Part shown: piece after piece, positions 71 through 46,084 of the stretch
Layout of the letters: every line of letters begins with the position of its first letter
How positions within the stretch are numbered: the stretch's first letter is position 1
Origin: Rotaria socialis
Lineage: Eukaryota
DNA length: 64,000 nucleotides
Direction: 5' to 3'
Assembly: GCA_905331295.1 (NCBI GenBank)
Contig: CAJNYD010000550.1
Span: 112,606-176,605, forward strand
The notes under the pieces: model-generated
Told to the model about the DNA's origin: nothing
Databases searched by the model: none
What the model saw: only the letters and a program-made list of their open reading frames with translations
Made by a program: the position numbers and the translations under genes

Positions 71-3000
71 ACAAAACTACTTGACGAAATTGATAAACTT
101 AAAAATGAACTTGAAAATGTTCGCAAAGAATTACAACGTTTACAACAACAACAACAACAGCAACAGCAACAGAAAAAGTAAAACGAATTAATATTAATTA
201 GTTCTTTTTTAAAATAAAACTTTTCTTCTAAGTGAGTCAATACAAACGTCTGTGCCCAACGATTTTGTCACAAGTACAACTGAATCAAATAATCGTGTAT
301 CACCTTCAACACGTGTTGTTAAAACAGTTCCAACAGTAACCGATCATATTTTTAAAGTAATATCTTTAATTTAAGTCCTATTGCTTATATACTTTTCCCC
401 CCATCTAATAGACATCTGAAGCTGATTGGGATACAATCGATCAAGCTCAAGTTATAAATGATGTTCGTTTAGCATTTGAATCATCAGATGTTGAATTAAC
501 AACTGATGATGAAGATTCGTTATATCAACATCATCCGGTGACAATTAATAATGGAAATCTTCCAACACAATCAACGCATAACGACGCGCAAACGTTGGCA
601 CTTGTTCTACAAGAACAACTTGATGCTATTAATAATGAAATTCGAATGATACAAGCAGAAAAAGTCGATGCTGAATTACGTGCTGAAGAACTCGAATCAC
701 GTGTTGTTGGTAATGTTGTTTATCATCTAGCTGATGAGGATATTGATGATGATGATGATGACAATGATAATGATTTAAATACTCACCATCATAGACATCA
801 CCCACAAGGAATATCGAATGGAACAATGCCACATTATCATTCTCATTTATCACAGCGTTATTTAAGAAATGCATCACCGCCAACAACATCAACATTAAAT
901 ACAAATACACATTTCCCAGGACGATTAACACCATATTCAACAACACCGGGAAAATCTTATAAATTTAATACAGTAACATAATCAATTTTTCGAAAAAATA
1001 TCATTATATACATATATATATATATTATTCATTAGGCTCCACCTGGTATGACAGCTGCAAATATGTATCAATATAATCTAGGCTCTGATCCAATCAACAT
1101 GAATGTAAGTAGAATTTCGTTCATGTTCGAACTTTGGTTTGTTTTTTTCATAATATTGTATTCAATAGGAATACGATCATACTTTACATCATCAATCTCC
1201 ACGTACATTTCGTAATGATTATGGACCAGGAACACGCTATTTAAAATGTGAATCAAGTCCGCCAGTAACGCCACCTCGAGTTACAACAAACATTCGAACA
1301 GCTACACCACATCATATTTATCATACATCGTCGAGTATTCAAAATCAGTATAGAATAAATACAAATATGTCGAGAACAAATCCACAACACATCGACGATA
1401 ATACTAGGCACTATTAGTAAGTAACGAACAGCAATGTTCGTTGTAAGCTGTCTGAGTCCACGTTGACAAAGATTAGATGAATCGTGATTTTTACGAACTA
1501 AAATTATTTCGACGTTGATGTATAAGATCATTAAAGTGTTTATTTTACTTGTACAACTGTTGTTCTTAACGGTTGTTGTCAGCGTGTTGAGTGTCAGTTT
1601 ATCGCTGCGACTGACTGCTGATATACAATGTTTACGTGCGACTATTTTTATTCGAGTTTTCACTAATGAATTTCATTAAGCGAGTACGATGAGCTCATCT
1701 CTGTACAGAATTAGCACTAATATTTTTGCTTTTTGCAAACCAATAGTCCGATATAAAAAAGGCAATTTTGAATAGACTCAATATTGATAGAATTTGTTAT
1801 ATCCTTGGAAATCTCATGACAATCTAATTATTATTGATCCTGCCTGTGACTCGTTTTTTTCACTGCTCACCTGGTGCCGTGCGAACCCCTACAGATAAAA
1901 TAAATAGATTACACAATCATATTATTATTTTATCATGGTCATGTGAAGATTTGATTATCATAAGAGCAAACAAAAAATAAATAAAGTTCGACTCAACTTT
2001 GTTTCCCTAGTCTTTTTTCATGGTTGTATCCTTGTGTAGTTTCAAGGTATTTGAAATTATCTATTCTCATCTAATTTTAATTGATCTATAATGAGAAGAA
2101 GACGGTTATGCATAGATGATAGACTGATGTTATCAGTGTACTATACCTCCTATCTTCGATATCCACCGAAACGGACGTGGTTCGATTACTTGCTATAAAT
2201 GCATGATATTACAAGGAATTTTCTCAGCGTCTCGATGAATAAGCGTTTAGGGTACAAGTATTTATCAATAGTCTACTCCAATAATTAATAGTTAAGCATG
2301 ACCGCCACTAGATATTATCAACTTAGTCTTTACAAAGACATATCTCGGAGATAGGCGGTTTTATCTTATAGTTTAATCAGGCTAGTCTACAAGGGGAAAG
2401 ATTTTTATTTCTCTCAAAGAGTAATATAACCCTAAATAAAGTTCTTTTAATAGTCAAGGATTTTCCATGTATTGTTTAATCTTATATGAATACCAAAATA
2501 GAAAATTGAATAATACGCAACAGTAATTTTAATTAATCTATGAATATTTTAGTACAAATTCGTCCATGGCCCAACCAACATCTTTATCGTCAATAACACA
2601 TCAAGATTCTCCGAGTCCTATAAGTTCTCAAAATTCAACATCAGGTGATGAGACTAGTTTCTATACAAGAAATCAACAACAACAGAAAAAGAAAGGCATA
2701 CGAAATTCTCTCGGGCGGTTATTTACACGAAAACCTGGTTCAATCGATAATAAATCCATGCATGAAAGTGTTCATCAGCCGACACCATCTTATCCACAAA
2801 ATTATCCATCACCTTATGTTACTCGTGGTAAATAAAATATTCTTTTTTCTTCTTCTATTTAAATATATTTTCATCGTCTTTAGCATCATCTGTACCGGTC
2901 GATCCTATGGGACCTAATGAAATGAATGAATCGACTACTGGTACATTACTTAGTTTAGGTAAAACAGAATTCGATCGACGTATAAAGAAAAAGTATGTTG

Positions 3001-4477
3001 AATAAATTACTATTGAAATAATCTAACCTATTTTCTTCACTGAAATTTAGACAAGAATTACTTGAAGATGCCATACAAAATAATCGTCCATTTTCAACTT
3101 GGGATGGTGCGACTGTTGTTGCTTGGCTTGAAGTGAGTACTCATCTAGAGTTAGAAGATGTTTAAATATCTATTATTTATAGTTATGGGTTAAAATGCCA
3201 GCATGGTACGTTGCTGCATGTCGTGCCAATGTTAAATCAGGTGCCATTATGTCGGAATTAAATGAAGAAGAAATTCAACGTCAAATTGGTATTAGTAATC
3301 CTTTGCATCGACTTAAACTTCGTTTAGCTATACAAGAAATATTAAATTTAACATTACCAGATGGTCCACGAACATCAGTTACTGTAAATTTTTTGAAGAT
3401 GCGAACTTTGTTTTTTGTTCTAATTTTACTTTTACTTTAAAGTCATTAGCATTTGGTGAAATGGATCATGAATGGATTGGAAATGAATGGTTGCCGAGTC
3501 TTGGTTTACCACAATATCGATCCTATTTTATGGAATGTCTTGTTGATGCACGTATGCTTGAGCATTTAAGTAAAAAAGATTTAAGTAAACAATTAAAAAT
3601 GGTTGACAGTTTTCATCGGTAAGATAATTCTATTTTATATTTTTATGGATTTGAAAGAAATGGTTTTGTATTAAATTTAGAACGAGTTTTCATTATGGTA
3701 TATTAGTATTAAAACGAGTTAATTACGATAAGAAAGAACTTGATCGAAGACGTGAAGAATCTTTAAATGAAAATCAAGATGTACTGATGTGGACCAATGA
3801 ACGAATTATTCAATGGTTAACAGCTATTAATGGATTAAAAGAATATGCTAATAATTTAACTGAAACTGGCATTCATGGTGGTTTGATTGCACTTGATGAA
3901 ACATTTGATCATAATACTCTAGCATTAGCATTACAAATACCAAGTCAACAAACAATGGTAAGAAAATAGAAGAACGAGTTGGTTTCTTGTTCTATGAATA
4001 GTTTTGGCATTTGTAATTTCTGTTTTTAGGCACGTCAAATTCTTGAAAGAGAATTTCGTCTATTAATTGCAAACGGTACAGATCGAAAAATGGATGAAGT
4101 AAGTTAATAGATCTACAAATAGGATCAAATAAATATGACACCTTTTTTCAGCTTAATAGGCAGTCATAACAGCCGGTAAATAAAATAATGTTGTGCTTTT
4201 TCTATTGTGCCTTTCCATGTTCGCTAATAGTTAGAAAATATCTATGCAAAGCAAAGCCCAACGATAAAAATCTTCGCTCTAAACTTTTATCTATCGGAAA
4301 ATAATTTATTAATCGTAAATTTTATTTTTGTTTTAGAACGACCGAGCAAAATTAAAACGTCATCCATCGTTATTTTCTCGAAAACCGAAATCAAAAACAG
4401 TCAGTGACGAAACGACACAGCCCAATGAAGTTGATTCATCAAATGCAACTCCAACTGATGAAAATCAACAATCATAA
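71..4477 (+). CDS. PPFIA: Liprin-alpha (SYD-2/PPFIA family), 3' portion, multi-exon; the 5' end lies outside the window
   Basis: Spliced exons give [37 protein letters not shown] and [13 protein letters not shown], then three SAM domains ([81 protein letters not shown]...[14 protein letters not shown]). Introns are GT-AG and the stop is at 4475-4477. Confidence 0.95.
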
Positions 4478-27888: not shown

Positions 27889-28237
27889 GCTAGAGACAAG
27901 AAATAATAAATAATAAATACAAGCGGGAATCTTTGATGAAAACATCACTGATGAAAAAATGTTGTCATATTTTTCTTTTCGAAAGAGTCCAGAAAAATAA
28001 TATTTATTCAACACTACAATATCGCTGTATTTACTTTGACTTTATAACCAAACATACCGTTTAACAAGGGTTGATAACTAGACATGAATATTTTCTCTAG
28101 CTTTTTACTTTTCTTTTTTTATTTCAAGGCTATGATAGTGAATTCTTATCTATTTCGTTTCTTATATAAGGATGCATTATTTCATAAATGGTCAATAAGA
28201 TTCTATCCGACTTGTTGTTATTTGTATTCAAAGACAA

Positions 28238-28939
28238 ATGCTCGCCATTCTTCTTCTCTGTATAGTTGGTTTTGTTGCCGCCCAACAACCTCAACCATGT
28301 GTAACACCACAACAATGGGAAGCTAACATTTTTGACTACAGTGAACCAAACAGATTCATGGTACGTGGACGATTGAGTTACGATGCTACCAATCACCGTG
28401 AACGTCTCCTTGAAGAAGTTGAAGTTGGAGATGACCGAGAATACTATGATGTCATTGCTTTGTTTGATTTACAAACCGAATTTATCTATAATTACAAAGC
28501 TCACAATTGTTCACGTCAACCATTAACTCGACCATGGCGCGATTTCGGTATTCGACCAGATGCTCGTTCATTCGGTGAAGCTTACATTGGTACATCGGCA
28601 TTACCAGGCTTAGGTTTATTAGTCACCATGTGGTAAATTTGCCTTTCTATGTTATTGTATCAAATTAGAATTGATTCTATTTCTAGGGGTACAAACCATA
28701 CAACACCCACAAACGACACTGTTCGCACATTCGGAACCTGGACATATCGAGCATGTCTTCCAGTCAGTTTTATTAGTCACAGCACTCAAATGGGTCGTAC
28801 TCAATCATCATTCTTCGATATTGTTGCTGGTATCAGTGATCCAAATGTATTCATTCCACGACCAGAATGTCTTACAGCCAAAGAATATGCTATGCGAGAC
28901 ACCCTTTTCGGTACACCCGCAAAAAAATTAAATAAATAA
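28238..28939 (+). CDS. EPDR1: Ependymin-related protein, copy 1 (2 exons)
   Basis: Signal peptide, PCVTPQQWE, YDATNHRER, NCSRQPLTRPWRDFGI, GEAYIG, CLPV and GISDPNVFIPRPEC, which form the EPDR cysteine/proline pattern. Intron at about 28633-28686. Confidence 0.93.
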
Positions 28940-30515
28940 ATAGACAACTTCTTTTTATTGACTATTTTAATGTAAACCTAGTTTTTAATCAATAAAATAA
29001 AACAAAGTTTCCATCTATGAAAAACATAATCTTTATCTTGCATGTAATTTTACAAGATGATAGCCATTCGAACAACAAGCACTTTTTGGATTCTCATTCT
29101 GCAGTCATTTTAAACTTAAGACAAGTATAGCGTAGAGAGAAAAAAAAGAATGGAAATTTGATTGCACGCTTTGCGTGTTAGTACTATTGTTATTGATATT
29201 TATAGAGTTCTTCACATATGTACATCATGCTAATCAAGATTAAATAATTTCACGGTAGACAGAATCCTTGAAAACAATATTTATTATTTTTGTTTTGTTA
29301 CTTTAATAGCACTAGCCAGACGCAAATCGAACTATTCGATTAGAAGGTCACACAATCTGCGAAATTGTTCGAGACGATTCTCGATTACTAAACACGAAAA
29401 TGATAACCTATTTTTGACTGTGTCATTCTTATAGTATGATTTTTAATTTTCCTTCGCATCATCTAAATGATTATCCAACACGATATAACTTTATTTACTT
29501 GTACTTTCATGCACTTCAGTAACACCCTTTACCAGTCTTGATAATACCTATGTGTCATCTTTTTTTTAAATTTATTTTCTTTCTAAGGTGATAATATATG
29601 TACTTTAGTATGTGGTCTGTTTGAGTCGATGCTAAATATGAAAAAGATATCTTTTTTATGCTTATCTATTCCTATGAAAAATAACCAAAGAAGATGTTTG
29701 TGGTTCTCTTGTGTTGTATGCTGGCTTGTTTACTTGTATTTTTTTTGTGGTAGGATAAAAAGCCACCCAGTACTTTTAGCTTTACTAAAACATGAAGGAC
29801 ATCTTATTAATATTCATATAGAATAACAATTTACGCCATTATCTAAATTAGGTTATTACATTGTTTAGGACAAAGAACTTTCTATTGCGTATTTTGAAGT
29901 CCTTCTTCAAGTCGAAATCAACCATAAAATTTCAGCTAGTGCTTTTCTATTAATATTACATGGTTCTAATAAATATATTCTTTAAAAGAAATTGTGTATA
30001 AACAAAAGCTGCTTTATGCAATGCGCTTTCTTCAGTTCACAAACAATCCACGCACATCTAAAGAACCTGATAAGCTTTTTCGTGGCTTGCCTTTTCTCAT
30101 GTTAATAAAAATCTTTCGATTGTTCCCTTAATTTGATGTTTATAGTTCGTTTTCTTGTAAATATAAGCATTCTGATGATATTTTCATGGATGATCAAGTA
30201 TCTCAGAACTCTTGTGATCATTTGTTTGATGGTGATTCAAATCTCACAAAAAAAGTATTTTGCACAATATTATTTTTTTTCCTTTAGTGGCCATCGTAAG
30301 TGTGTTAGTGTTAGATTAGACTGCGTTGATAAGAGAAGATACACTGCTGTTTGGTTTCTTTTTGTTGAAACAAGTTAACTGACAACAATGTTGACAATAC
30401 ACTCTGTTTTCAGTATTACATATATATATATATATATATAGGCAAGTCATTTCTCAAAATCTTCAACAGAATAGTTTAGTCTTCGTTTACTATTTCATTT
30501 TCAACAAACTAAATA

Positions 30516-31221
30516 ATGCTTGTTGCTCTCGTTCTTTGTTTGGTTGGCATTGTAGCTGCACAACGACCAATTCCATGCACGACTCCATCACAATGGGAAG
30601 GAAATGTTTATGATGTTAATGAAGAGCAAAAATTCCGATTAAACGGAAGATTAAGTTATGATGCAGTTTATCACCGTGAACGAATTGCTGAAGATATCGA
30701 AGAAGGTAGTCAAGATGATTTCTTTGAACGACTTGCTCTTTTTGAATCACAAATTGAATTTGTTTACAACTTCCGTGCTCGTAACTGTACTCGTCAACCA
30801 ATAACTCGACAATGGCGTGATTTTGGTATTCGTCCAACAGATACTTCATACGGTGAAGCTTACATTGGTTCATCTGCTTTTCCTGATACAGGTTTATTAG
30901 TCACAATCTGGTAAATAATCTTTCAATAATACTTCTCAATTAAATACTTCTTTGTTTTTTTTTATATCTAGGGGTGGTAATTTCACTTTACCAACAAATG
31001 ACACAATTGATTATACATCAACATGGACCTATCGAGGATGTATTCCAGTTACTCGAACAAGTTTCAGCCCTAAATTCGGTATTTCACACTTGTCATTCTA
31101 TGATGTAACAGCTGGTATCAGAGATCCAAATGTGTTTATTCCACGACGAGAATGTCTTTCAAGTGAAGAATGGGCTAGCCGATATACTCTCTTTGGCACA
31201 CCAGCAAAAAAGCACATTTAG
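30516..31221 (+). CDS. EPDR1: Ependymin-related protein, copy 2 (2 exons)
   Basis: Same motifs and intron position as copy 1. Confidence 0.93.
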
Positions 31222-31957
31222 AAAACATTTTTTAAATGAATTATATCATAATATTTCTTTTACAAAATAAAAATTTTGTGTAGTTTCGATAAACTAACGC
31301 ATACTAGAAACTGATATCATTTGTGTGATGTAATCAAAGGAATAAAAGCTAACTTTCGCTGAGGTTTCATCTTTCGAAAAACATCATGTGTGATGATTAT
31401 CAGCCAATTGATTGAAAGTGAATTTGAAAAATTTTGCACAATGCATTGAAATAATTCTTATGCAGATTTAGCATCTATATTAAACGAACAAAAACTAAAA
31501 GAAAATCAACAGAATAGAAAATTCAATAATCGAAGTTATATTATTTTGAAGTGAGAATCTGTTCTAACCATTTTGCAGTGTAATGATTTCTATCATCCGG
31601 TGTGACTAATTAATTCTTCAGTGGCAAAAATCTGTTTTGTGTTTTTTATCAAGATTTTGACGCAGAAGAAATTGTTTAAACATACTATTATTATTTTTAC
31701 TCTTTATTAGCCAATGTAAATGTGTTATCTTGCACAGAACTGTACTGATAACTGCAATCTACACTGACGCCCCGGGTAGTTTTTTTTGCTAGAATCAAGG
31801 TGAGTGACAACAATCTTGACTAAATTCTTCTCTCAACGTTGTATATATATATATAGAGAGAGAGAGACAGACAGAGAGAGACGAATCATTTTTCAGCATC
31901 TGCAACATAAGAGTTTATTCTTCGCTTACTACTATTTCATTTTCAGCAAACAAAAAA

Positions 31958-32654
31958 ATGTTGGTTGCTCTTGTTCTATGTTTGGTTGGTATTGCCGCTG
32001 CACAAGTACCCGCTCCATGTACATCCCCACCACAATGGGAAGGTCGTGTTTTCGAAATTAATGAAGAACAAAAGTTTTCATTAGGAGGCAGATTAAGTTA
32101 TGATTCACTGTATCACCGTGATCGCTTTGTTGAAGAAGTTGACGAAGGTGGTGAACAAAATGTTTATGATCGACTTTCCCTCTATGATCAAAAAATTGAA
32201 TATGTTTACAATTTCAAAGCCCGCAATTGTACACGACAACCATTAACTCGACCATGGCGTGATTTTGGTATTCGTCCAACAGATACTTCATACGGTGAAG
32301 CTTACATTGGTTCATCAGCTGCAGCTGATACAGGTTTATTAGTCACAATCTGGTAAATAATCTTTCAATAATACTTCCTAATCAAATATTTGTTGTATAT
32401 CTAGGGCTGGTAATTTCACTTTACCATCCAATGATACAATTGATTTCATTTCGACATGGACCTATCGAGGATGCATTCCAGTTTCTCGAACAAGCTTCAG
32501 TCCTAAATTTGGTGTATCCCATTTATCATTCTATGATGTAACAGCTGGTATTAGTGATCCAAATGTATTCATTCCACACCGAGAATGTCTTTCAAGTGAA
32601 GAATGGGCCGCGCGAAACACTCGCTTCGGTGTACCAAGCCTGAAAAAACATTAG
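31958..32654 (+). CDS. EPDR1: Ependymin-related protein, copy 3 (2 exons)
   Basis: Exon 1 is ORF 31958-32356. Exon 2 (about 32405-32654) encodes AGNFTLPSNDTIDFISTWTYRGCIPV...GISDPNVFIPHRECL...KKH*. Confidence 0.93.
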
Positions 32655-33391: not shown

Positions 33392-33772
33392 CAGAGAGCG
33401 AAAACGAACCGAACCGAACCGAACTCGAGCCGACTTTTTGAAAAGTCAGTCGAACCAAACCGAACCCGAACCGATTTTTAAAAAATGCACTCGAATCGAA
33501 CCGAACTCGAAAAAGATATTGAAAAAATGAACAAATACAAGTCAATGTAGAAAAAAATCTAATTAGGTGCACTATCATCTATTTCTTAAAAATATATGCT
33601 GCTGACAATGGTTAAAAGACCTTTGATCAGTTCTTTTAGGTAATTAATTCAACCTGTGTACAATATTTTGTTCCTTATTCATATTACGTACACATTCTGT
33701 TCGTGACGGTCGGTCACTTGTAAGGGTCATACATTCTTAATTTATCTCTCTTTTTTTCTCCCATTGTCTTAC
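33392..33772. mobile_element. Probable hAT-like transposon end with GAACC subterminal repeats, running into the assembly gap
   Basis: CAGAGAGCG start followed by tandem (GAACC)n/CGAAC arrays at 33404-33510. Confidence 0.5.
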
Positions 33773-34441
33773 NNNNNNNNNNNNNNNNNNNNNNNNNNNN
33801 NNNNNNNNNNNNNNNNNNNNNNNNNNNNNNNNNNNNNNNNNNNNNNNNNNNNNNNNNNNNNNNNNNNNNNNNNNNNNNNNNNNNNNNNNNNNNNNNNNNN
33901 NNNNNNNNNNNNNNNNNNNNNNNNNNNNNNNNNNNNNNNNNNNNNNNNNNNNNNNNNNNNNNNNNNNNNNNNNNNNNNNNNNNNNNNNNNNNNNNNNNNN
34001 NNNNNNNNNNNNNNNNNNNNNNNNNNNNNNNNNNNNNNNNNNNNNNNNNNNNNNNNNNNNNNNNNNNNNNNNNNNNNNNNNNNNNNNNNNNNNNNNNNNN
34101 NNNNNNNNNNNNNNNNNNNNNNNNNNNNNNNNNNNNNNNNNNNNNNNNNNNNNNNNNNNNNNNNNNNNNNNNNNNNNNNNNNNNNNNNNNNNNNNNNNNN
34201 NNNNNNNNNNNNNNNNNNNNNNNNNNNNNNNNNNNNNNNNNNNNNNNNNNNNNNNNNNNNNNNNNNNNNNNNNNNNNNNNNNNNNNNNNNNNNNNNNNNN
34301 NNNNNNNNNNNNNNNNNNNNNNNNNNNNNNNNNNNNNNNNNNNNNNNNNNNNNNNNNNNNNNNNNNNNNNNNNNNNNNNNNNNNNNNNNNNNNNNNNNNN
34401 NNNNNNNNNNNNNNNNNNNNNNNNNNNNNNNNNNNNNNNNN
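33773..34441. other. Assembly gap (669 N)
   Basis: Run of N. Confidence 1.
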
Positions 34442-34789
34442 AGTCATACTCGATCGCTGTATGTAAGAAATAATATTTTTCTCTTGGTTTTGTGAAAAGC
34501 AAGCATTATTTTTTGACAGCGTATGTTTTTCGGGCAAACCTTTTATCTTGTGTGCCATAAAGGAATCATCTTCGGCGTGTATATGAAAGGTAAAATATAT
34601 AATTTCTCATATTGCTGTGAAAACTGGGTTAAAATGTTTTTGATTCCACACTATTCGCATAAACTTTCAAAGCCCTGTATTAAAAAGGTGCTGCCTTCAG
34701 TGGCATATTCACTTCGTAAACTCGTGAACTGATAGTTCCAATACCGTCATTTCAGTATTACAGAAGGAATATTTTTGGGAAGATAAAAA

Positions 34790-42343: not shown

Positions 42344-43045
42344 ATGTTAACAATTCTGCTTCTCTGTTTGCTTGGTTTTGCTGCTGCACAACAACCACGT
42401 CCATGTACAACTCCACCACAATGGGAAGGGCGTATATACGACAGTAATGAAAAACAAAAAGCATCATTAAGAGGACGAATAAGCTATGATTCTGTTTATC
42501 ATCGTTCACGAATCGTCGACGATCTTCAAATCGGTACTGAAGAAATAGCGAATGATATTCTCTCCCTGTATGATGCTAGAATTGAATTCGATTATAATTT
42601 CAAAACTAAAAATTGTACACGCCGAGAAATAACTGAACCGTGGCGTGATTTTGGTATTCTTCCAGATGCAACTTCATATGGTGAAGCCTACATTGGTTCA
42701 TCTTCTCTTCCGGACACTGGTTTACTCATTACAATTTGGTTAGTACAAAGTCTTTTTCCATTGATTTGAAAAGTGCACTATTTTTTAAACATACGTAGGG
42801 GTGGCAATTTTACTTTATCAAACAATGAAACTATTCCATATATAGGAACATGGACATATCGAGGATGTCTTCCAGTTTCTCGAACAACTTACAGTGAAAA
42901 ATACGGCAATGAAGTGTTATCATTTTATGATCTCACTGTAGGTATTAGTGATCCAAACGTATTTATTCCTCGAAGCGAATGTCTTACAGAAAAAGAATAT
43001 GTCATGCGACATACTCTTTTTGGCACAACTACCAAGAAAAACTAA
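42344..43045 (+). CDS. EPDR1: Ependymin-related protein, copy 4 (2 exons)
   Basis: PCTTPPQWEGR, YDSVYHRSR, NCTR, WRDFGI, GEAYIG, CLPV and GISDPNVFIPRSEC; intron at about 42739-42798. Confidence 0.93.
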
Positions 43046-43885
43046 TCTATTATTATTTGTGTATGCCTGTTTATTTTTTTCATACTTTTCTTTTGTTTCT
43101 TAAAATAAAAAGATGAAAAGTAGTGTTTCGTAGTTCTTTTTTTTGAAAATGATCTAATTACCATGAATATTACGAAAAATCAATAATAATCTTTATAAGA
43201 ACCTTCAGAAATCATCCAATAGTTAGAAACATTAATCAGTAAGTTATTAAATACAAACATAGACATATTTTAAAGATCATACATTATAAAGTCAATCTAT
43301 TAAGAAATAATTTAGAGAGATAATAATAAAAGAGTATTCACATATTCGTTATGTATATTTTTTGCATGTCAAGGTTCGTGTTGATCTTTCTCTTCATTCA
43401 GTCAAACCTAGTTATACGAAAGAGATGAATTTATTGTCAGGAAAAGAAACTTTGTTTCAAAATCTAGTAAATTGATAAGATACGAAATATACAGTTGCTC
43501 CTTCTTTTTCTGTACGTCAATTAACTTAGAAGATTCATGACTGTCATTTGTTTCAAGATCTCATTAGAATTTAAGTAGGGTTCAATTTTCAGTGTTACAC
43601 TGAAATCGTTCTGTGATTGTCGCTGAGAAAGTGTCTTCCATAAGAACGAAAAATGAATAAAGTGTATAGTGAGATGCCAACGAATTCGAACTAAATGGAA
43701 TCGTTATATTATCAGAACGGACAACTTTTGACTAGTCTACAGGTAAAACTAAGAAGTCAACAGATAAAGAAATATTGACGATATTACATGTAGCGTCATC
43801 TATAAGCCTCCATTTTAGATTGGCAACTACTATGTATACCTTAAACACTTTTAATACAAAAAGAAAATTTTATTTCACTTTCATC

Positions 43886-43903
43886 ATGCACTATGGATTC
43901 TAA
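43886..43903 (+). promoter_or_regulatory. Short uORF (MHYGF*) overlapping the PSMG3 start codon out of frame
   Basis: ATG CAC TAT GGA TTC TAA; extendable in frame to an ATG at 43832. Whether it lies inside the mRNA is unknown. Confidence 0.45.
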
Positions 43904-44363
43904 ATTTCCACAAACAACAACTGTAAGAGTCATAAATTCCTAATATTATTTTGTATTTGGCATACTTCTAGGCACAAACAACACTGAGCAATCACATTAC
44001 TGATCTTGTTATAAGTAGTTTTGCTAATAAACTTTTTATATCGGTAACTCAATTTGGTAAAATCGGAAGTTTAGTAAGTCAAAAATAGAGAACCTAATCA
44101 TATTTATTTCCATATGAATTGTGTAGGTTCTCGTTCGTCGTGACGTTAATCTAGAAGAAGATTCAGCACCAGTCTATTCAGTAAAATCTCTTCTTGGTAA
44201 AGATCAAGCTGAATATCATATACTTGCTCGTCATCTTTACGAACGCTTACAATTAAAAAAACAACTTCTCTTTGGTTTTGCATTACATTCATTCGCTAAG
44301 AAAGATCTTGCAGAAATCGAAGAATTTATCTGTTCTAATATTAAAAAAGTAAATCAACAATGA
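43893..44363 (+). CDS. PSMG3: Proteasome assembly chaperone 3 (PAC3), 3 exons (43893-43922, 43972-44073, 44127-44363), 122 aa; absent from the ORF track
   Basis: Spliced translation MDSKFPQTTTAQTTLSNHITDLVISSFANKLFISVTQFGKIGSLVLV...VYSVKSLLGKDQAEYHILARHL...LLFGFALH...QQ*. It matches the PAC3 motifs VTQFGKxGxL and KxLLGxD. Confidence 0.9.
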
Positions 44364-44635
44364 ATAAAAGGTTTTTGAAAAATTTTCTTCCATACATCAC
44401 ATTAATGGGTGTAATCTATGTAACAATACGTAGTGCATCTTGGGTACGTTACGATCGTCGACGACAACAAGTTAAAACATATTCACGTGATGAAATTAAA
44501 GCTAAAGGTCTTGATTATGGTGAACCAACAACGTTAGAAGAAGAATATGAGCAAATGGTTAATCATCAAAATTTAGATGCATGGGAGCAAACACGAATCC
44601 AACGACCATGGCATGAAGAACCAGATAAACCCTAA
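44360..44635 (+). CDS. COX16: Cytochrome c oxidase assembly protein COX16, single exon
   Basis: N-terminal TM (FLPYITLMGVIYVTI), then VRYD, TLEEEYEQM and LDAWEQTRIQRPW, the COX16 signature; AATAAA at about 44686. Confidence 0.9.
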   Translation: MNKRFLKNFLPYITLMGVIYVTIRSASWVRYDRRRQQVKTYSRDEIKAKGLDYGEPTTLEEEYEQMVNHQNLDAWEQTRIQRPWHEEPDKP

Positions 44636-44754
44636 ATGTTTTCTTCCTTTTTTTTCTGTATTTTAAAATATCTATTAAAACTAACAATAAAAAGAATGAG
44701 TCGACGATCTAAGACTAGACAATAAAAAAGATTTTACTAATAAAAGTAATTCAT

Positions 44755-46084
44755 TCATTTATCACTGAGACCAGTTACACCAGGAAGATCTTTTCCTTCG
44801 AGAAGTTCAAGACTTGCACCACCTTAAAAGGAGTCGATAGATCAGTATAATACTCTCTAATTTAACTTACCTCCAGTTGATACATGATTCACTTGATCAG
44901 CAAAAACAAATTTAGCACTAGCAGTCGCTGTATCCTCTCCGCCAATAATTGTTATAGTATTTTGCTTTGTTTGTTTGACCACAGCTTTGAGTAATTCTTG
45001 TGTTCTATTAGCAAATTGATCTTGTTCAAAAACTTCCATAGAATCATTCCATACAATTGTTTTAGCTTTTTTAATACCAACTATAAATTGTTTTTATGGA
45101 TTCTTTGCCGATGTCAAGGCCAAGATAATCATCGTCGATACCATTTTCTTTTGTTGCTTTTTTCGTTTCTGTTGATTTAATATCATGAGCAACAATAAAA
45201 TCAACTAGCAAATAGATTTCAACATTTTTTGTTTTAGCTTTATCGAGAATCTTTTGAAATCGATTTCGATCCTTGTGAATCAAATAAAGATTTAACAATT
45301 TTCATATTCTCTTTTTCTTCGAGGAATTTAATTTTAAATATAAATATATATAAGAAATTCAAGAACAAACCAAGAATAGCAAGAAAACGTCGTTCAGGAT
45401 TTTCAAGTACTAGACCAAAATAATCAAGCTCTTTTTTCATTAAATAACCGGCTGCACGTTGATCAAGTTTAACTCCGACAATTGAACTGTGAGCACAAAG
45501 CTGCTCCAAAAGCATCATGAATATCTATAGGGAAAAAAACCAATCGGATCGTATTCATGTAAATATAAGACAAGAAAAAACTTACAAACATCACCAAATT
45601 TTGATAGACTAGCTCGAAATTTATTGGTAGCATCTTTGCCAGCTTTTGTTTTATTGCCTTGTTTATCTTCAACAGAACCTTCTTCAAGATGAAATTAGAG
45701 ATTTTCAAGTATAATAATTTGTCCATTATCGGATTCACCAACGACACGTTCAACTTCTTCACCAACACAATCATTCAGAAACGTTACATATTTGCCAAGT
45801 AATCTTTTTAATTCTTCAGCAACGGGCTTTAAACTTTCTTTTTCAGCGCGTTTACCATCAGGTCGACCCAAATGAGACATAAGAATAATTGCTTTTGCAT
45901 CTTTATCAAGAGCATATTTTATTGTTGGTAATGCACCTTCAAAATGTGTTGCTTATCTTTTACTTGGCCATGATCCAATGAAACATTGAAATCAACACGC
46001 ATTAAAACTCGTTTACCTTTTAGGCCGAGATCTCCAATAATTAATTTATTGCTAATACTACCTTTACTAGGTTGTAGATACCAT
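44755..46084 (-). pseudogene. PGK: Phosphoglycerate kinase pseudogene, introns retained
   Basis: [59 protein letters not shown]. There is a stop in ENL*FH (about 45695), frameshifts near 46070, 45942 and 45500, and the AKVxDK...GGGMA block is missing. Confidence 0.88.

Follow-up and report, generated by a model that had tools for sequence, protein, structure and literature searches.

Neighbouring genes are co-transcribed in the SL-resolved operons of nematodes and tunicates. In Drosophila, 159 dicistronic gene pairs have been described, of which the exclusively polycistronic ones have spacers of −34 to 319 nt (PMC4528330), and because such pairs are known, neither bicistrony nor an overlap of reading frames is new in animals. 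In green algae as in Drosophila, bicistrons read by scanning are recognizable by their depletion of AUG (PMC11892635). The second ORF of the Drosophila stoned/Snapin mRNA is reached by scanning past a first ORF with a weak start context (Wall et al. 2005, as given in PMC11892635), and green-algal bicistrons are tuned by a weak Kozak sequence of ORF1, with neither an overlapping uORF nor a stop/start overlap reported for them in the accessible part of PMC11892635. KSHV has two uORFs, of 9 and 11 codons, and a uORF lying over the strong start of ORF35 lets ribosomes move on to ORF36, 332 nt away (PMC3561293). The TURBS sites of caliciviruses and influenza B combine stop and start in AUGA and UAAUG overlaps and need no AUG-free ORF1 (PMC10275272, PMC5972666).

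We analyzed a 64,000-nt stretch of Rotaria socialis DNA (hereafter, the window) in which the genes for PSMG3, a proteasome assembly chaperone, and COX16, a mitochondrial complex IV assembly factor, follow each other on the same strand, and we propose, with a probability of about 0.65, that the two genes form a scanning-type bicistronic mRNA whose COX16 frame is reached by reinitiation after a uORF, by leaky scanning, or by both. The pair would resemble stoned/Snapin as a nuclear mRNA with two full ORFs and no internal AUG in the first, and in the scanning proposed here for its second ORF; it differs in its stop/start overlap, its genes and its phylum, and its first start is not weak, PSMG3 having a purine at −3 and G at +4 under a conserved uORF. 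With the green-algal bicistrons it shares a short ORF1, AUG depletion before ORF2 and conservation across species (PMC11892635; PMC7896298), and with KSHV ORF35–ORF36 and HBV C0 a short uORF over a favourable first start and a Met-poor ORF1 (PMC3561293), the scanning distance being 351–354 nt as compared with 332 nt in KSHV. Unlike this viral system, where the route was shown by mutation (PMC3561293), the rotifer pair is cellular and spliced, has a single uORF of 5 codons very close to the apparent 5' end, and would follow a route that we infer. Its junction takes the AUGA and UAAUG forms of the TURBS overlaps but has no UGGGA and no conserved structure (PMC10275272, PMC5972666). It is like SL-resolved operons in that its two neighbouring genes are probably transcribed together and that SL trans-splicing occurs in the phylum, yet it has no intercistronic spacer or conserved acceptor, and its spliced contigs keep both ORFs. 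Judged by sequence, the pair has the features of scanning bicistrons except a weak first start, and lacks both the motif and structure of TURBS and the spacer of SL operons.

The gene pair and its transcripts

The downstream ORF matches Pfam COX16 from residue 10 (E 2.8e-12), exon 3 of the upstream gene matches Pfam PAC3 (E 1.2e-10), and the upstream frame has human PAC3 in the PDB as a match (E 3.9e-8). The 122-aa PSMG3 protein is identical to P0051, which is labelled Rotaria socialis. These Pfam matches, together with the relatives described below, agree with the first-pass annotation of this DNA, which had claimed two complete, conserved ORFs on one strand with zero spacer, and the sequence confirms the sharing of bases that it reported between the COX16 ATG (44360-44362) and the PSMG3 TGA (44361-44363). 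It was mistaken in placing the PSMG3 start at 43886: the ATG there is out of frame and opens a uORF, and the true start is at 43893 (Table 1). Upstream of the pair, a conserved block that aligns in the window and in four related loci (L002-L005; the sequence of L001 stops short of it) contains stretches that we take to be TATA-like and CCAAT-like, and is likely to be a promoter common to both genes.

Table 1. Features of the PSMG3–COX16 pair, in positions of the window.
Feature	Position	Strand	Evidence
Conserved upstream block with presumed TATA-like and CCAAT-like stretches	43788..43822	+	aligned in window and L002-L005
uORF, 5 codons, ATG 7 nt 5' of PSMG3 ATG, out of frame	43886..43903	+	6/6 sequences
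PSMG3 CDS	43893..43922, 43972..44073, 44127..44363	+	
PSMG3 exon 1, coding part; start ATG with −3 purine and +4 G	43893..43922	+	X1, X2 RNA contigs
Intron 1, 49 nt, GT-AG	43923..43971	+	joint 43922-43972 in X1, X2
PSMG3 exon 2, without ATG	43972..44073	+	gene model, relatives
Intron 2, 53 nt, GT-AG; contains ATG (44114), lost on splicing	44074..44126	+	contigs
PSMG3 exon 3, coding part, without ATG until COX16 start	44127..44363	+	Pfam PAC3
ATGA, COX16 start over PSMG3 stop	44360..44363	+	sequence
COX16 CDS, 91 aa, single exon	44360..44635	+	Pfam COX16, alignment
AATAAA at junction, COX16 codons 2-3; place not conserved	44363..44368	+	sequence, relatives
Common 3' UTR, AATAAA at 44686-44691	44636..44723	+	RNA contigs end 44720-44723

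Transcript evidence comes from 8 of 18 runs, all in the form of assembled contigs, with the RNA nature guessed for five of the eight. A single contig crosses the junction in five runs, and four of these contigs, from four studies, are spliced. Both introns are removed in the contigs of X1 (43890-44723, depth 130) and X2 (43885-44720), each 734-735 nt long; intron 2 is removed in X6 (43972-44720), the loose end of the X7 contig (44127-44643) is the end of exon 2, and X9 contributes a contig at 44322-44641. The junction is not spanned in the other three runs, X5 having nothing in the stretch and X8 and X10 only short pieces; runs without cover (X5, parts of X8 and X10) were counted neither way. 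We conclude that a spliced mRNA of ~740 nt common to PSMG3 and COX16 is likely. The first-pass annotation held that one mRNA yields both proteins, a view that gains from the spliced contigs across the junction and from the conserved linkage, and that falls short of proof, since a contig is not one molecule: transcripts that overlap would be joined in it, and short SL tips may have been lost by pruning. Nor can cap sites be read from the contig starts (X1 43890, X2 43885); the X1 contig begins after the uORF ATG, and only X2 reaches past it, by one base.

The same annotation had argued that the pair is not a classic SL-resolved operon, and this gains support, in that there is no conserved internal acceptor near the COX16 ATG and that the 44126 acceptor is used in cis. 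The spacer is negative; the nearest AG before the COX16 ATG lies at −10 in the window only, and at −34 and purine-rich in the five relatives. SL addition at 44126, raised as a possible refutation, was checked against the contigs, and that acceptor is cis-spliced in X1, X2, X6, X7 and X8. There is no SL loose end among the contig ends listed, from which such tips may have been dropped.

Conservation of the pair and of its start sites

A metagenome scan recovered at least six related loci, L001-L006. L006 is cut and begins inside COX16; the other five of the six loci listed contain the junction and, together with the window, make up the six sequences compared below, which are related to each other and differ between loci by 9-33 synonymous differences per ~100 codons. 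PSMG3, with the same two introns, lies directly 5' of COX16 in L001-L005. The adjacency and overlap that the first-pass annotation proposed to look for in relatives recur in all five junction-holding loci among those listed, the overlap as ATGA in four (L001, L002, L004, L005) and as TAATG in L003, a recurrence that points to more than chance. In an ungapped alignment the stop and the start of the window both lie 3 nt further downstream than in L001-L005, and the protein pair P0040/P0023, from contigs of equal length, has the same junction register as the window.

The linkage extends to annotated proteins. For 12 of 14 CAF-numbered COX16 accessions there is a PSMG3 accession 14-20 numbers away, the paired species being R. 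magnacalcarata, A. ricciae (both COX16 variants) and A. steineri; accession numbers this close would place the two genes side by side. A divergent bdelloid lineage (P0123/P0121) seems to retain the pair, the contig of each protein being 2184 nt long. Its COX16 (P0121) begins M-V, which rules out ATGA, and L-F before the PSMG3 Met of P0123 rules out an ATG at −7; because both are absent from this lineage, neither the −7 ATG nor the ATGA is universal in bdelloids. As read from the proteins of the P0123/P0043/P0121 lineage, the L-F codons imply a pyrimidine at PSMG3 −3, and a weak start context may there stand in for the uORF. The COX16 of Didymodactylos (P0076) begins M-N; its PSMG3 was looked for among proteins and not found, and for R. 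sordida no COX16 partner was identified. No monogonont protein was among the 8 of 46 matches that were looked up, and the prokaryote genomes and viral contigs scanned held no relative. The PSMG3–COX16 arrangement is real and is kept across several bdelloid genera.

The surroundings of the pair are also partly conserved, with the order ependymin, PSMG3, COX16, PGK and SHIPPO-repeat gene kept in L005. The window has four ependymin-family genes, three of them clustered (28199-32651) and one just 5' of PSMG3 (42344-43045), and L005 has two tandem ependymin copies 5' of PSMG3 (1368-3149). The ends of COX16 and the convergent PGK are separated by no more than ~120 nt (window 44636-44860). COX16 has no intron in any of the six sequences, leaving no exon junction after the PSMG3 stop; one may speculate that, with COX16 intronless, the long mRNA would escape nonsense-mediated decay, and, equally speculatively, that the lack of introns could hint at an origin as a retrocopy.

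Between the PSMG3 ATG and the COX16 ATG, 362-365 spliced nt contain no ATG in any frame in any of the six sequences; COX16 itself contains 7-12 ATG in the same six. As controls we used 23 coding stretches picked by hand from the window, 10,272 nt in all, in which ATG occurs 9.3 times per 362 nt and none of 17 non-overlapping segments is ATG-free. PAC3 is Met-poor in fish also: the two fish proteins compared have a single internal Met each. Codon choice is informative here in that a T at the end of an Asn, Asp, His or Tyr codon before G would create an ATG. At such sites in PSMG3 the six sequences have 22 C and 0 T, counts that represent four codon positions (18, 50, 54 and 82) in related sequences and not 22 independent events; the ratio is 4 C : 101 T in the same kinds of codon elsewhere in PSMG3, 2 C : 34 T before G in COX16, and 25 C : 151 T before G in the control genes. 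With each of the four positions counted once, Fisher's test gives 5.6e-4 versus the controls and 1.4e-4 versus 18 other PSMG3 positions. The window alone has two such sites, GAC before G (44142-45) and TAC before G (44238-41), both of which avoid an out-of-frame ATG, and under a same-protein null 480 of 20000 were ATG-free (2.4%). Codon 18 (43993-43995) is CAC in the window and has C before G in all five relatives; because this site is in exon 2, the corridor begins 5' of the 44126 acceptor. Intron 2 has at least one ATG in five of the six sequences, and the RNA that needs the corridor is therefore spliced.

Two lines of argument were dropped. We had considered that Met was replaced in bdelloids (human QFGKMG) to avoid ATG, and two fish proteins also have Ile; a first null, in which 8 of 52 long stop-free-frame windows were ATG-free, was compromised by antisense frames and a presumed repeat at 33.7-34.6 kb. 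That region (window 33707-34606), which is open in all six frames over 220-290 codons and ATG-free for 850 nt, is probably a simple tandem repeat.

An ATG at −7 of PSMG3, with an in-frame TAA from PSMG3 codons 3-4, is found in all six sequences. All three of its columns are invariant, versus 3 of 26 other leader columns; the uORF extends to 43903, which is 11 nt inside the PSMG3 CDS, and its ATG has a purine at −3 throughout the six. In eight control genes no ATG occurs in the 35 nt before the first Met, a thin control in which six of the eight starts belong to ependymin paralogues and two to PGK. The conserved −7 motif could instead be a core-promoter element. The favourable context of the PSMG3 ATG is common to all six sequences, so that by the vertebrate rule the first start is not weak. 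By this rule a pyrimidine at −3 makes a poor start for scanning ribosomes, and the COX16 ATG has one in four of the six. In L002 a second upstream ATG lies 17 nt 5' of the PSMG3 ATG; it is in the third frame, as judged by eye, and this frame too crosses the PSMG3 start.

Proposed routes to COX16 and their alternatives

Under the scanning model that we favour, the cap would lie ~10-30 nt 5' of the uORF. Ribosomes that skip the uORF ATG would start at 43893 and translate PSMG3. Those starting at 43886 would translate five codons, terminate and resume scanning; such ribosomes could not start PSMG3, and the next ATG that they would meet is that of COX16, 354 nt on (351 in the relatives). Others would pass the two cap-near ATGs without initiating and continue scanning as far as COX16, and we weigh reinitiation and leaking about equally. 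Both need an ATG-free corridor, and scanning would thus account for the corridor and the uORF, two features that scanning predicts and that the first-pass interpretation overlooked. In place of a weak PSMG3 start context, the model needs either a short leader or the uORF. The ATGA overlap would be either a minor extra route or an outcome of the tight packing of reading frames.

It is conceivable, and in our judgement unlikely, that COX16 is the first ORF of an mRNA of its own, which would begin at a second start site within exon 1 or intron 1 or arise by addition of an SL onto the intron-1 acceptor (43971), with the PSMG3 exons as an ATG-free leader. Such an mRNA would account equally well for the avoidance of ATG in exons 2 and 3; intron 1 is ATG-free in five of six sequences, as many as have an ATG in intron 2, and the low-depth contigs of X6 and X8 start about at the start of exon 2. 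SL trans-splicing exists in rotifers (PMC3795323), and only 45 of the 159 Drosophila dicistronic loci are without monocistronic alternatives (PMC4528330). However, a separate COX16 mRNA leaves the conserved uORF unexplained, and the contigs of X2 and of X1, the deepest, run continuously through exon 1. None of the four X1 records starts at 43972, and the three letters that precede 43972 in X6 mismatch the intron AG; an SL with AG at its end would have matched there. SL addition further downstream, at 44126, would leave the C-before-G site of exon 2 unexplained.

The first-pass annotation likened the ATGA to translational coupling and viral stop-restart, and a bicistronic mRNA might indeed yield COX16 mainly through coupled termination-reinitiation at the overlap, as in caliciviruses and influenza B. 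The likeness in form stands: the overlap is present in 6/6 sequences, takes just those two forms that are known, AUGA and UAAUG (PMC10275272), and remained intact when stop and start of the window shifted together by 3 nt. The PSMG3 tail is variable in sequence and hardly so in length, the second residue is compatible with ATGA in 24 of 26 full-length bdelloid COX16 proteins, and the weak −3 context of most COX16 starts would also fit. The joint shift, however, need not mean selection for coupling, because a TGA arises anyway wherever an A follows an ATG of the −1 frame, and M-V in P0121 breaks the ATGA. No TGGGA or GGG occurs within 120 nt 5' of the junction in any of the six sequences, and no junction fold is significant (z −0.2 to −1.75). 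The consensus fold (−7.3 kcal/mol), including a small hairpin just 5' of the stop that is not significant, has an unfavourable covariation term with 1 of 30 pairs compensatory, and an Rfam search of the junction gave no match above the gathering score. Coupling also offers no reason for the uORF or for the avoidance of ATG 100-310 nt upstream. Scanning is better supported, and we regard coupling as the main route to COX16 as improbable; stop-restart may still contribute alongside scanning. Highly implausible, and already largely refuted, is that PSMG3 and COX16 are spliced into a fused protein from the GT at 44349, or that COX16 starts at 44405 and the overlap is incidental. A 165-aa R. socialis model (P0053) does fuse PSMG3 to the C-terminal half of COX16, and NCBI COX16 models are mostly of 75-76 aa, but none of the eight runs has a joint in the region, the donor G at 44349 is missing in L001-L005, and the N-terminal 15 residues of COX16 are conserved, whereas the second Met is missing in 3/6 loci and is replaced by I or V in 9 of the 26 full-length proteins from bdelloids.

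Several public models (P0007, P0025-P0027, P0046) start at this second Met (44405), without the conserved N-terminal 15-16 residues; truncated COX16 models of this kind probably arise since gene callers avoid overlap. A PSMG3-only isoform made through the AATAAA at the junction, a caveat of the first-pass annotation, is possible and would not refute the bicistronic reading. An AATAAA at +3 of the junction is present in the window only; AATAAA or ATTAAA occurs within −30..+40 in five of the six sequences, in differing places, and AATAAA has a frequency of 1.7 per kb in control coding DNA.

Meaning for bdelloid gene expression

Bicistronic mRNAs as a class are not new, being already known from flies and algae. 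Among open-access articles, represented mostly by titles, we found no report of a bicistron in rotifers or of PSMG3–COX16, nor, in the accessible part of this literature, of a cellular mRNA that unites an overlapping uORF with an ATG-free ORF1 and overlapping stop and start codons; similar cases may sit in FlyBase's File S1. Skipping to a second gene by means of an overlapping uORF is a strategy whose described cases are so far mainly viral, and if the uORF route is true, the rotifer pair would be a cellular instance of the mechanism described for KSHV and HBV. More tentatively, and with some doubt, we suggest that a cellular animal mRNA here follows the whole KSHV ORF35-36 strategy, in which the uORF would split the ribosomes, COX16 would be expressed without an mRNA of its own, the corridor would be kept across bdelloids, and the overlap would serve as a second, TURBS-free route of restart.

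The ~740-nt mRNA would bring together three routes (uORF, leak and stop-restart), each of which could be removed by point changes. Public bdelloid COX16 models are truncated or fused, and by their C-ending codons before G further hidden bicistrons could be searched for in these genomes. If the KSHV-like strategy does operate in these animals, desiccation or another stress could change how much proteasome assembly factor is made relative to that for complex IV, because reinitiation depends on the supply of initiator tRNA.
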